Part shown: one piece after another, positions 1,736 to 48,600 of the stretch
How the letters are laid out: each line of letters starts with the position of its first letter
How positions within the stretch are numbered: position 1 is the stretch's first letter
Assembly (NCBI GenBank): GCA_038087875.1
Contig: CM075989.1
Location: forward strand, 22,508,001-22,572,000
Length of the DNA: 64,000 nt
Source of the DNA: Malacoraja senta
Taxonomy: Eukaryota
Direction: 5' to 3'
Position numbers and translations under genes: made by a program
Notes under the pieces: model-generated
Databases searched by the model: none
Seen by the model: the letters and a program-made list of their open reading frames with translations, nothing else
What the model was told of the DNA's origin: nothing

Positions 1736-1789
1736 GAGGTGGGAGATTGCAACCTTCACGTGGTCCACCCTGTTTCGACGAATGCAATC
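1736..1789 (+). ncRNA. Minimal HDV-like (CPEB3-type) self-cleaving ribozyme fold at the 5' end of a short retroposon
   Basis: Manual fold: P1 GAGGTGG(1736-42)/CCACCCT(1765-71) with G1.U wobble and one A-C mismatch; P2 GATTGCA(1745-51)/TGCAATC(1783-89); P3 ACC/GGT; L3 TTCACGT; GT followed by a tiny P4 (TTCGA); J4/2 CGAA with candidate catalytic C1779. The element order matches the HDV double pseudoknot. Confidence 0.8.
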
Positions 1790-1871
1790 AACCCGGCGTG
1801 CACAAGCAGAAGATCAAACAGAACGAGTTGTCTTACAACTTTAGGCTGTGCACGCCATACGCAAGAAGAAG
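1736..1871 (+). mobile_element. ~135-nt ribozyme-headed short retroposon with (AAG)n tail, copy 1
   Basis: Closely similar to 26825-26963 and to the reverse complement of 16722-16853; ends ...GCACGCCATACGCAAGAAGAAG; no tRNA A/B boxes seen. Confidence 0.85.
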
Positions 1872-15660: not shown

Positions 15661-16721
15661 AACAAAACTGTGATGACTTCATTTCACAGCAAATACTGTG
15701 GTCATGTATCTTAGACTTACGATATATACAAGAGAATACATTGGACTTGGAGAGAGTGCAACACTGGTCAGTCAGGAAGATACCTGGACCATGAGTAAAA
15801 CTGAGGAGAGAAATTACACAAATCGGGGTGAATTCCATGGAATTTAGACACCAAGGATGATTTTGTTGATGTTTACAACATTTAACAGAGCAGATGAGGG
15901 ATCTGTATTTGCTGATTAGAGCTTCTGGGACAGGGGGATATAGTCAAAAGGCCAGATCTAACTTTGCACCACTCAAGTTAGGAAATGCTTCTGCAAACAG
16001 AGGGTCGTAGAAACATGGATTTTTGTTAAAAAAAAAACATTGTGAACTTTACTGAAACAAGTGTAATAAAAGATATAGAGGAAATGCAGACCTTTTGAGG
16101 AATATCTCAGATCAGTCATAAAGGCACAAATAATGAATAGTTTAAGTTTCTATATTCTTATGTTTTGTTTTCAACTTTATATAGTTCCAATCATTGTGGT
16201 TGACTCTAGCATGCTCCATCATAAAGTCTTTCCTATCTTAAAAATGGACTACATTGAAACATTAACTGCAAGATAGTCAGACTGGCTGAAGAAGGGTTTC
16301 GGCCCAAAACGTTGCCTATTTCCTTCGCTCCATAGATGCTGCTGCACCTGCTGAGTTTCTCCAGCATTTTTGTGTACCTTGGCTTTTAAAAAGTTGTATT
16401 CAATTAGTTGTGATACCCCAGACATTTATGCCTTAATAAGAGTAATACTGTCAAAGGGAAACATTTGCAGGAAACATCATTACAGTGAAGGAACAACATC
16501 ATTCCTACCTCCCCCCTCCTTTCCCGTGACTTTCAGACTGAAGAAGGTTCTCGACCCGAAACATCACCCTTTCCATCTCTCCAGAGTTGCTGCCTCTCCC
16601 GCTGAGTTACTCCAGCTTTTTGGGTCTATCCTACATAGAAGGCAGTGCATATCACTGATCAACTCAAAGCCAAAATGAAACCTCTAGTGAGTTCATTTCA
16701 TGCCTTTGTTAAAACAATTAC

Positions 16722-16853
16722 CTCTTCTTCTTCTTGCGTATGGCGTGCACAGCCTAAAGTTGTAGGACAACTTGTTCTATTTGATCTTATTTGATAGTAC
16801 ACTCCGGGTTGATTGCATTCATCGAAACAGTGAAGGTTGCAATCTCCCACCCC
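16722..16853 (-). mobile_element. Ribozyme-headed short retroposon, copy 2 (internally deleted)
   Basis: Reverse complement begins GGGGTGGGAGATTGCAACCTTCAC. Flanked by AAAACAATTAC (16711-21) and AAAACAATGAC (16854-64). An 11-nt deletion removes P3'/P1', and the J4/2 C is changed to T. Confidence 0.85.
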
Positions 16854-17995
16854 AAAACAATGACTACATTTCTCACAGTGAAAGCTACGTCAACAAGTCC
16901 CGTGCCTTTTTTGTTTCTATTTGGTCCACAATGAGACCTTGCGCCCAATTTGGGGAAAATGTCATTGCTTAGTCTTAACTTGTTCAACCAAACATGCCAA
17001 GGTTGGGTCCATGACAGACCAGAAGCTGCCTAACATGAATCTTCATTGCTCAAAACATTTGCAATAATCTGCCTTTGAATAGATATTTCCTGTACAGGGG
17101 GACCCCGTGTAGTTAGTGAGACCAGTACTTTAAGAAAGATCATTTGTTCCTATCTGCTGCAAATTGACGATATAATAGGTCATTTCTAAATACTCCAGCA
17201 TAGGTCTAAATACCTCAGGTCATGTTCCTGACTTTGGCGAGGCTGCCAAGGTCATCATCATGACCGCATTTTACCTCAGACGTGAGCATTGCTTCAAAGT
17301 CATAATGTTACATGTGGAAGTTTGAACATGTCTATATTTATTTTATATTATTAGCCCACGGGGTGTAACACAAATTAAACTCACTCCATTTAAGACCTTC
17401 AGAATTAGAAGGAGAAAGATGACGAGAGAGTGAGAGCAAGAGCAAAGAGAGAGGTGAGAGAGAAAATAAGAGTGAGAAGAGACGGTGAGGAGAGAGAAGT
17501 GGTTTCATCAGTTTCCATCTCCACTAGATTTGATTTCAGGCCCACAGGTGAAATGTCACAATTCTAACCTACTTAGAGAGATGATATCAAATTAATTAAC
17601 ACTGTTCTGATTGTTCCAATAATACTAAAGAGAGCTAATGCACTGTTAAAAGCAATACAGCAGTTCACATGGCTGTGACATTGAAAGATAATAGAAATTT
17701 TACAGAATCAAACTAAAAATCAGTTGTTAGTGACAATTTTATAAAATCCTAGAAATAATGCTGCTACAGAGAAAACAATGGAAAACTATTGCTATCTTTA
17801 CAAAATTAAAACTGATCTATCAAAATTGAGGCAATATGCATTTCTGCAAAAAAAATGTGGAACCATTTCTATGATGCATATGTTCAGTTGGCGATATCTT
17901 GTTCAGTTATGCTTTATGTATTGGCACAGGTACTGATCATTTGGTATTGTTTCTAGTACATCTTAATTTTTTAATAATAACATGTACCCATCTAT

Positions 17996-26824: not shown

Positions 26825-26963
26825 TGGGAGATTGCAACCTTCACGTGGTCCACCCTGTTTCGACTAATGCAATCAATCCGACGTGCACAAACAAATAGAT
26901 CAAATAGAACAAGTTGACCTGCAACTTTAGGCTGTGCACGCCATACGCAAGAAGAAGAAGCAG
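26825..26963 (+). mobile_element. Ribozyme-headed short retroposon, copy 3 (about 4 nt 5'-truncated)
   Basis: TGGGAGATTGCAACCTTCACGTGGTCCACCCTGTTTCGACTAATGCAATC...(AAG)4; flanking direct repeat AAGATAT at 26819-25 and 26964-70. Confidence 0.85.
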
Positions 26964-46524: not shown

Positions 46525-46728
46525 GGGTAGACAAAAATGCTGGAGAAACTTAGCGGGTGAGGCAGCATCTATGGAGCGAAGGAAAATAGGCACGGTTTCA
46601 GGTCGAAGGGATTCGACCAGAAACGTTGCCTATTTCCTTCGCTCCACAGATGCTGCCTCACCCGCTGAGTTTCTCCAGCATTTTTGTCTACCTTTGATTT
46701 TTCCAGCATCTGCAGTACCTTCTTAAAC
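46525..46728. mobile_element. Fold-back Penelope-like fragment with perfect 14-bp TSD
   Basis: TTAATGAGATTTTT at 46511-24 and 46729-42. Confidence 0.85.
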
Positions 46729-47058
46729 TTAATGAGATTTTTCTTTATTTGAATAGTTGACTGTGTGTTTAGAAAAAAAACGCACAAATTCAATGCACGT
46801 GCTTTCCATTGAGTAAATAAAACATTTATCTTTAGTTTAATCCTGCAAAATGTAAGGGGAAAATATACAATTAATGGCATGATACCATAAGGTCAACAAA
46901 ACCTCGGTACAGGTGACAATAAACTGAACAGACTCAAACTAAACTCCTTGCTGGTACCAGTTTATTTCCACCTTTGAGTGAAGTGCCATCGAACTTCACC
47001 CACTGATACCAATGCAGGAACCTTGACAACTTTGTGCAGCCTAATTATTTACATTTTT

Positions 47059-47969
47059 TTTAGTTTAGTTCAGATTAGAGTTACAGCATGGAAACAGGCC
47101 CTTCGGCCCACTGAGTCTGTACTGACCGCTGCACATTAACACTATCCTACACACACTAGGGACAATTTTACATTTACACCAAGCCAATTATCCTACAAAC
47201 CTGTATGTCTTTGGATTGTGGTAGGAAACTGAAGATCTCGGAGAAAACCCACGCAGGTCATGGGGAGAACGTACAAACTCCCTACAGACAGCACCCGTAG
47301 TCAGGATCAAACCCGGGTCTCTGGCGCTGTAATGCCCCTGTCCCACTTAGGAAACCTGAACGGAAACCTCTGGAGCCTTTGCGCCCCACCCAAGGTTTCC
47401 ATGCGGTTCCCGGAGGTTTTTGTCAGTCTCCCTAATGGTCGAAAGTGGTTTCAGCTTCTTCTATGTTCCGGCGATTATTTTCAAAAATTCAAAACCGGCC
47501 GCGACTAAAAATAGGTTGCCGTTTTAAAAATCGGTAATTTTTTAGTTGAAGCCGGTTGCGATGCTAGTTGAAGGTGGTTGCCGGAGGTTGCAGGTAGTGG
47601 AAGGTAAGACCTCCCTGGTGGAATAAAACTGGGTGAAAAAAAGGTCTTACCTTCCACTACCTGCAACCTCCGGCAACCACCTTCAACTAGCATCGCAACC
47701 GGCTTCAACTAAAAAATTATTGATTTTTAAAACAGCAACCTATATTTAGTCGCGGCCGGTTTTGAATTTTTTGAAATAATCGCCGGAACATAGAAGAAGC
47801 GGAAACCACTTTCGACCATCAGGGAGACTGACAAAAACCTCCGGGAACCTCCAGGAACCGCACGGAAACCTTGGGTGGGCGCAAAGTCTCCAGAGGGTTT
47901 CCGTTCAGGTTTCCTAAGTGGGACAGGGGCATAAGGCAGCAACTCTACCGCTGCGCCACCGTGCTGCCC
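47059..47969 (-). mobile_element. V-SINE interrupted by a 599-bp palindromic MITE
   Basis: SINE GGCGCTGTAAGGCAGC split at TAA. Confidence 0.9.
47333..47931. mobile_element. Palindromic (fold-back) PIF/Harbinger-like MITE
   Basis: TAA|TGCCCCTGTCCCACTTAGGAAACC ... GGTTTCCTAAGTGGGACAGGGGCA|TAA; about 280-bp inverted arms with a ~29-nt spacer. Confidence 0.92.
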
Positions 47970-48304
47970 AAATGGTGGCTGGAGCAACGTATGGTAACTC
48001 TTCTTTCATTGTCAGATGTCTTAGTAGGAGAGGGCAATGTTATGAGTGCCTGACATCACTTCAGAGAGAAGAGCAGAGTGCCGTCCTCCATTCTACAACA
48101 GGGCATTGTGTTGCATAATCACAGGTAAGAGCTAAGATGGGCTGCACAATTGCTTCTCTTTATCCCTGTGGAGCAGAGAGCACTTGCTATAATTTGGCTT
48201 CATGGTGGGAACCAAAGTGGATGAAGGAAAGTGTAGGAAGGAACTGCAGATGCTGGTTTTAACCAAATATGGATGAAGGAAAACTGCCTTCAAAGTTCCT
48301 AAAA

Positions 48305-48600
48305 AGTACAGTTTAGTTTATTGTCACGTGTACCGAGGTACAGTTTAAAGCTTTTGTTGTGTGCTAACCAGTCAGCGGAAAGACAAAAGTGCTGGAGAAA
48401 CTCAGCGGGTGCAGCAGCATCTATGGAGCAAAGGAAATAGGCAACGTTTCGGGCCGAAACGTTGCATATTTCCTTCGCTCCATAGATGCTGCTGCACCCG
48501 CTGAGTTTCTCCAGCATTTTTGTCTACCTTCGATTTTCCAGCATCTGCAGTTTCCTTCTTAAACAGCGGAAAGACAATACATGATTACAATCGAGCTATA
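48305..48600 (-). mobile_element. Rex1 3' UTR with nested fold-back PLE (48387-48563)
   Basis: 14-bp TSD CAGCGGAAAGACAA at 48373-86 and 48564-77. Confidence 0.85.

Follow-up and report, generated by a model that had tools for sequence, protein, structure and literature searches.

A short dispersed retroposon family in Malacoraja senta that begins at G1 of a predicted HDV-like ribozyme and recurrently loses part of it

Results

A retroposon copy flanked by a target-site duplication

The window analysed here is the whole 64,000-nucleotide stretch of Malacoraja senta DNA (GCA_038087875.1, contig CM075989.1, positions 22,508,001 to 22,572,000). As shown in Table 1, the focal copy occupies positions 16722-16853 of the minus strand and is one member of a family of ~135-nt non-coding retroposons. 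We found no sign of a host gene by Pfam, which matched none of the 12 long open reading frames of the window. An initial annotation of this DNA had reported a flanking duplication with 10 of 11 positions matching, and we recovered it exactly as claimed; no random 32-position window in 200,000 gave as good a match. The annotation also proved correct in placing G1 of a GGGGTGG strand at 16853, where the partner strand of other copies reads CCACCCT or CCGCCCT, and in reporting both an 11-nt deletion and a C-to-T change at the predicted catalytic position. The deletion removes the last two bases of L3, P3′ and six of the seven P1′ bases, and the remnant retains, besides the strands listed in Table 1, part of L3, a minimal P4 and J4/2. 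Among 78 sampled copies, 6 carry this C-to-T change. The assembly was searched for a second copy of the focal locus by which the deletion might be dated, and none was found.

Table 1. Family copies in the window and parts of the focal copy (window positions)
Feature	Position	Strand	Remark
Family copy 1	1736-1871	+	Fold complete but for one P1 mismatch; duplication not seen
Target-site duplication, 3′ side of the element	16711-16721	.	10/11 match with 16854-16864
(GAA)n tail	16722-16732	-	Tail common to LINE copies
3′ ~38 nt, common with the partner LINE end (last codons, stop, 3′ UTR)	16733-16770	-	Reference positions 95-132 match LINE copies
Short linker, absent as one piece from the LINE	16771-16787	-	
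LINE 5′ UTR sequence directly after the ribozyme	16788-16810	-	Reference positions up to 77 match LINE 5′ ends
Remnant of the predicted 54-nt HDV/CPEB3-like ribozyme	16811-16853	-	Fold no longer fitted
P2 3′ strand	16817-16811	-	
Predicted catalytic C	16821	-	T in the focal copy; CpG site
11-nt deletion junction	16829-16830	-	Common to 14 other insertions
P3 5′ strand	16837-16835	-	
P2 5′ strand	16844-16838	-	
P1 5′ strand	16853-16847	-	
Target-site duplication, abutting G1	16854-16864	.	10/11 match with 16711-16721
Family copy 2	26825-26960	+	Without the first 4-5 nt

Among the three copies of the window, a duplication at G1 is seen in the focal one only, since copy 2 is shortened at its 5′ end and copy 1 shows no duplication, because another repeat adjoins its tail. 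The earlier statement that copy 1 also starts at G1 therefore holds by homology only, its 3′ end running into that repeat.

Elsewhere in the window, long near-perfect hairpins with sub-threshold miRNA-type Rfam matches lie at 47572-47682, 46548-46669 and 48395-48511, and those hairpins (46548-48511) are likely inverted-repeat mobile elements. Between 5635 and 7259, open frames of 412-491 codons occur in all three forward frames with no Pfam match; this is likely a low-complexity or repeat region.

The element joins the two ends of a Vingi-like LINE

The short element has no ORF and consists of positions 1-77 of a LINE, a linker of ~17 nt, the last ~38 nt of the LINE and a (GAA)n tail; one LINE copy (L198) matches it over positions 2-77 and 95-132. 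Exact-pattern counts, which are lower bounds, gave 2,514 copies with a 3′ 30-mer, 4,630 with the ribozyme flanks and 5,018 with the 3′ region, so that the family comprises at least 5,018 copies. The copies are independent insertions, with a target-site duplication score of at least 8 in 66 of 78 and a duplication length of 11-13 bp in 45 of the 53 measured.

The partner was reached through one 3′-anchored match that is a LINE end, from which an upstream walk led to near-complete but broken copies of ~3 kb (L196 and L198). These carry the same 5′ ribozyme, domains for an endonuclease and a reverse transcriptase, and the same 3′ end and tail; in L196, PF14529 and PF00078 lie in successive broken frames. 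The closest intact homologous proteins are mostly ~1000 aa long, on contigs of ~3.3 kb. We looked for RNase H and found no Pfam match in two C-terminal pieces of the partner LINE and none listed for its top ~1000-aa homologs. The partner thus fits a Vingi-like LINE, with a single compact ORF encoding an APE endonuclease and a reverse transcriptase and showing no RNase H. A C-terminal cysteine/histidine motif, which we take to be a Vingi feature, forms part of the basis for this label, and we keep it at ‘Vingi-like’ because the placement is by described features rather than by comparison with named Vingi sequences. The 38 nt shared with the LINE end are likely the recognition end for its reverse transcriptase.

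A SINE headed by tRNA, 5S or 7SL sequence was considered and rejected, the head being the LINE's own 5′ end and no such Rfam match being found at the copies.

The linker, likely a fold-back junction, contains a local duplication as well as 7 nt of the LINE 3′ end in inverted orientation. At 16760-16780 on the minus strand this inverted copy pairs with that end in a small hairpin, likely a scar left when the short element was founded. Many LINE copies have their ribozyme end inverted and fused to the start of a 3′ fragment (L124, L130, L136, L141, L151, L152, L159, L168 and L177); the inverted ends begin at positions 5-19 rather than at G1. The arrangement is like that of 5′ inversions by twin priming.

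The element's first 54 nt fit an HDV-like fold

The helix names used here and the catalytic role of the J4/2 cytosine are those established for HDV-like ribozymes, read together with the Rfam alignment. Evaluated with a helix descriptor, the first 54 nt of the element fit an HDV/CPEB3-like fold. The nested double-pseudoknot order P1, P2, P3, L3, P1.1 is found in full in copy L036 and with one mismatch, a G2-to-A change in P1, in copy 1; the descriptor fails on the focal copy. G1 lies at the base of P1, P4 is reduced to ~5 nt, and the predicted catalytic C44 (in J4/2, followed by N-A) is present in 70 of 78 copies. Changes that separate subfamilies within the genome fall in J1/2, at J4/2 position 2 and in one U-A to U.G pair, and are compatible with the fold.

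Against Rfam, an intact copy matched CPEB3_ribozyme (RF00622) at 19.2 bits with a cut-off of 35 (E 0.0065 in a 201-base search) and the HDV-F-prausnitzii model at 14.4 bits with a cut-off of 44. Both scores lie under the cut-offs and the element is therefore not a member of either family. The Rfam scan of the whole window did not find the ribozyme, and the weak matches appear only in short-region scans.

Relatives of the LINE in metagenomes were found by an alignment-based scan, a single-protein scan having returned none. In the sequence before the ORF, 6 of 19 such loci carry the fold with other P1, P2 and P3 sequences (L235, L240, L247, L255, L289 and L303), against 0 of 19 reverse strands and 1 of 760 shuffles; helix pairing and the catalytic C with its J4/2 context are descriptor requirements, and so are present in the six by construction. 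By the same descriptor the other 13 loci show no fold. The MAFFT alignment of the ribozymes is non-structural and pairing was judged by the descriptor. An exact 11-bp duplication ends at the G1 of L240, and in L289 a 14-bp duplication ends 1 nt before G1; duplications were looked for in L255 and L303 and none was seen. By eye, HDV-like cores in partial, interrupted or variant form can be made out upstream of the ORF in L233, L243, L249, L276 and L296, where the descriptor missed them.

One of these relatives touches on a separate question. At 3272-3345 of L289, and also in L290 and L291, the start of the LINE is a ribozyme that passes the CPEB3 cut-off (55.6 bits against 35, E 2.6e-12). L289 is a metagenomic LINE of the same broad group with endonuclease and reverse transcriptase frames, and its helix sequence matches the mammalian CPEB3 ribozyme. 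This offers a lead that the mammalian ribozyme may be a domesticated LINE 5′ end, with convergence or contamination as alternatives. The literature searched, including the portions consulted of PMC10919898 and PMC6765202, yielded no statement that the CPEB3 ribozyme is LINE-derived.

Insertions begin at G1

We evaluated the 5′ boundary in 90 of the first 100 listed matches to the 3′ 30-mer, all on contig C1, from which three duplicated loci (L056, L068 and L099) were dropped to leave 87; this anchor misses subfamily D. The initial 30 copies, which had been selected with the 5′ end included, were kept out of the histogram. Positions 1-5 were reached by 78 of the 87 copies, the other nine being truncated, interrupted or LINE ends. 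Duplications were then called across a 76-position range, blind to G1. For the 66 copies with a score of at least 8, the duplication ended at 0 in 26 and at +1 in 21 (47 of 66 together), the +1 class being a mixture of a shared G and true loss of G1, and 63 of the 66 ended inside -3 to +2. G occupies position 1 in 68 of the 78 copies. When flanks were cross-paired as a control, 11 of 239 reached a score of at least 8 and none of the 239 fell within 2 nt of G1. A second, ribozyme-anchored sample placed the duplication end at 0 or +1 in 43 of 57 copies. L198, a full-length copy of the LINE, has T at position 1, and its 11-bp duplication stops 2 nt short of that base.

The pile-up predicted by the initial annotation is thus present in copies picked regardless of their 5′ end, and shows that the transposed RNA began at G1. 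Its second proposed check, an empty orthologous site, gave a different outcome. No empty site was found in four sequence sets: in three relatives the 5′ end of the element is present in place at the focal locus, so that they carry the insertion instead, and the fourth set, from the same organism, misses the junction.

In about one-fifth of sampled copies, 1-3 extra bases, mostly T, separate the duplication from G1. Of 65 copies, 37 have T immediately before G1 and 10 have G; this is no excess of G (p 0.18), and there is therefore no sign of a copied cap. The T before G1 and the extra bases may reflect either target preference or untemplated addition.

A deletion hotspot in the P3′/P1′ strand

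The exact 11-nt junction of the focal copy is found in 15 separate insertions, all starting at G1 and set on several subfamily backgrounds. Searching with a gapped pattern, we found 245 copies shortened within a 15-nt interval of the ribozyme, and 74 of the 100 listed had lost 9-12 nt. In an equally long control interval we counted 39 shortened copies, of which 3 had lost 9-12 nt. The estimated rate of 9-12-nt deletion is 5.0% of copies against 0.07-0.13%, a 39-77-fold difference by comparison with this one control interval; the denominators are the 4,630 and 5,018 pattern counts, rescaled by sample ratios of 30/41 and of 62/68 or 11/24. Deletions of 2-4 nt are about equally frequent (1.1% against 0.6-1.1% in the control). 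On the left the breakpoints lie within L3 and on the right at the base of P1′, and the lost piece matches the 10-nt P3′+P1′ strand.

We compared 70 of the 74 deleted copies with 72 de-duplicated intact ones. The deletions recur independently, with 16 junction types in subfamily B and 7 in D, and the G1 boundary is retained in 43 of 60 deleted copies. Divergence of deleted and intact copies is 3.44 and 3.42% in B and 2.0 and 2.3% in D, whereas in A divergence is higher in the 4 deleted copies (6.5%) than in the 10 intact copies (2.5%; p 0.018); 9 of 140 rows (7 in B, 2 in A) were omitted from this count as too short or too divergent. An earlier, smaller test had tended in the same direction as A, with 4.8 against 3.9% (p 0.20). 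Subfamilies A and C are depleted about four-fold, making up 5 of 70 deleted and 17 of 70 intact copies (p 0.009). To call the focal copy ‘now dead’, as the initial annotation did, is to read its deletion as decay private to that copy; the deletion belongs instead to a recurrent hotspot.

One exact junction in 15 insertions is what a ribozyme-dead source lineage that still transposes would leave. That junction is shared across several subfamily backgrounds, however, and is one of more than a dozen types, and deleted and intact copies alike include both alleles of a variant lying downstream. Given the many junction types, the retained G1, the pattern of divergence and the depletion in A and C, we reject such a lineage as highly improbable. 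Selection for dead ribozymes was also rejected as the cause of the hotspot, because 2-4-nt deletions, expected to inactivate as well, are not enriched.

Direct repeats bound two further recurrent deletions, at reference positions 50-67 and 70-79; of 78 copies, 2 have lost the first segment and 2 the second (L047, L079, L032 and L098).

Discussion

What sets the 5′ end

We propose a model where the predicted HDV-like ribozyme likely cuts the element RNA out of longer host transcripts at G1, and the LINE's enzyme likely copies the freed RNA into new sites, leaving duplications of 11-13 bp. On the sequence evidence, self-cleavage at G1 is probably what sets the 5′ end; it would account for the pile-up at G1, the conserved fold and the absence of upstream sequence carried along. 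Beside the anatomy, shared ends, G1 boundary and conserved fold that the copies display, this model takes in a cleavage activity, read-through transcription and mobilisation by the Vingi-like LINE, which we infer. The initial annotation had called the boundary independent evidence that the ribozyme makes the 5′ end. The pile-up and the fold in distant LINEs speak for that claim, and its wording was too strong, because a transcription start at +1 yields the same pile-up.

Such a start could come from an internal promoter in the first ~77 nt, with the ribozyme dispensable or mainly an end-protecting structure. An equal pile-up at G1 would be expected of it, and copies with a destroyed ribozyme do still begin at G1 (15 of 15, and 43 of 60). 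The sister clade L1Tc/NARTc has both promoter and ribozyme in the same 77 nt, according to the consulted part of PMC3383444, and in the R2 system a 5′ ribozyme fold raises insertion efficiency, as the portion seen of PMC11331408 describes. The deleted copies are nevertheless non-clonal, with many junction types spread over all subfamilies (the largest accounts for 9 of 51 in B); with no clonal lineage among them, there is no sign of ribozyme-dead copies acting as sources. All six distant matches have the catalytic C in its J4/2 context, as the descriptor requires, and the lack of an extra G at the junction argues weakly in the same direction. We consider the promoter unlikely and retain self-cleavage as the better account of the boundary.

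When the deletions arise

The 9-12-nt deletions may be made during reverse transcription. The enzyme would stall at the nested P1/P3 helices and resume in L3, skipping P3′/P1′; deleted copies would then be dead on arrival, the intact RNA having already cleaved at G1. The best structure of the region as RNA is P1+P3, and this is not so as DNA. In the R2 system an HDV ribozyme at the template 5′ end causes frequent truncation within 50 nt (PMC11331408, in the part consulted). The breakpoint positions, the match to P3′+P1′, the RNA-only P1+P3 fold and the R2 truncation lead us to favour a skip during copying, for which we put the chances at about even.

Somewhat less probable is that the deletions arise in genomic DNA after insertion, through a break and end joining or through conversion by a deleted cDNA. 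The break would then be structure- or CpG-linked, the 5′ end can still be ribozyme-made, and ‘now dead’ would hold literally for the focal copy. The alignments of contigs from two relatives (X7 record 24 and X9 record 32) break off precisely at 16830, leaving 4 and 3 letters over, and the contig of a third ends at the focal breakpoint; from these unaligned ends, the data suggest that the orthologous copies lack the focal junction and that the focal copy lost the segment after insertion. This signal comes from one locus, however, and could also reflect a 10-nt deletion at birth followed by loss of 1 nt. Short inserts derived from sequence nearby occur at some junctions, in keeping with later loss, but junction microhomologies span just 1-3 nt; a 3-nt repeat of A and C would serve the 9-nt type, which is nevertheless found solely in B and D (11 cases). 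The roughly four-fold rarity in A and C, the subfamilies without a CpG at positions 31-32, and the greater divergence of deleted A copies also point to later loss. Against it, B and D give no age signal and the younger subfamily is hit equally often; the sizes also match the 10-nt P3′+P1′ strand, and P1 is absent from the best DNA fold. The odds ratio for young against older subfamily, 0.94, has a CI of 0.36-2.49, which takes in the 0.62 expected of a rate proportional to age.

On the reading by skipping during copying, reverse transcriptase would pass over P3′/P1′ in ~5% of insertions, leaving a fossil footprint of the RNA double pseudoknot, so that the ribozyme sterilises some of its own offspring; Vingi-like LINEs would commonly bear an HDV-like head, of which the 54-nt version in thousands of animal copies would be a minimal form. 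We hold this combined picture to be evenly balanced between true and false.

Relation to known elements

The principle that ribozymes make retrotransposon 5′ ends is known, and precise junctions set in this way have been published for the R2 SIDEs (PMC3414825) and for NARTc and others (PMC4035085, PMC6765202), as far as the portions consulted go. The R2 SIDEs of Drosophila are likewise non-autonomous and combine a 5′ HDV-like ribozyme with a LINE 3′ end; their 5′ junctions are mostly precise at the ribozyme, and a hybrid R2/R1 type is flanked by duplications. In contrast to the element described here, which is ~135 nt long, dispersed in thousands of copies and served by an APE-type partner, they are site-specific, rDNA-bound, rare and ~500 bp long (PMC3414825, same portion). 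Also related are NARTc, RIME and SIDER of the trypanosomatid L1Tc/ingi clade. According to the consulted parts of PMC3383444, PMC4035085 and PMC6765202, these dispersed elements take ~77 nt from the 5′ end of a LINE, in which an HDV-like ribozyme cuts immediately ahead of +1, together with a short piece of its 3′ end, and are flanked by ~12-bp duplications. The family here differs in a partner that shows no RNase H domain, a (GAA)n rather than poly(A) tail, and an animal host with a 1.94-Gb genome. The Vingi clade shares the compact single ORF with APE and reverse transcriptase and the lack of RNase H, and yields bipartite non-autonomous forms (PMC5786205 and PMC13708176, in the parts seen).

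With the mammalian CPEB3 ribozyme (RF00622) the element aligns in the L3, P1.1 and J4/2 core. The mammalian ribozyme has a long P4 and occupies one intronic locus, whereas the one described here heads a mobile element, has a minimal P4 and scores under the family cut-off.

The literature searched contained no report of this family, of a ribozyme in Vingi elements or of deletions of this kind; Ruminski 2011, Kojima 2011 and Repbase may cover the family or the ribozyme. Within that scope, the short family, a predicted ribozyme at the head of a Vingi-like LINE, and the deletion hotspot appear to be new.

Implications

The G1 boundary over many natural insertions supports a ribozyme-made 5′ end in the Vingi-like LINE group, for which the consulted part of PMC5786205 lists no ribozyme. 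The element also offers a very small natural candidate for an HDV-like ribozyme. Vingi-type elements are under development as gene-insertion tools (PMC13708176, in the portion seen), and a structure-linked loss of ~5% at the 5′ module is therefore of practical relevance. Deletions made during copying would be evidence in vivo for how the RNA folds, whereas deletions made later would mark a strong, unexplained hotspot of deletion in DNA. The thousands of intact copies in this genome could, in addition, cut host pre-mRNAs.
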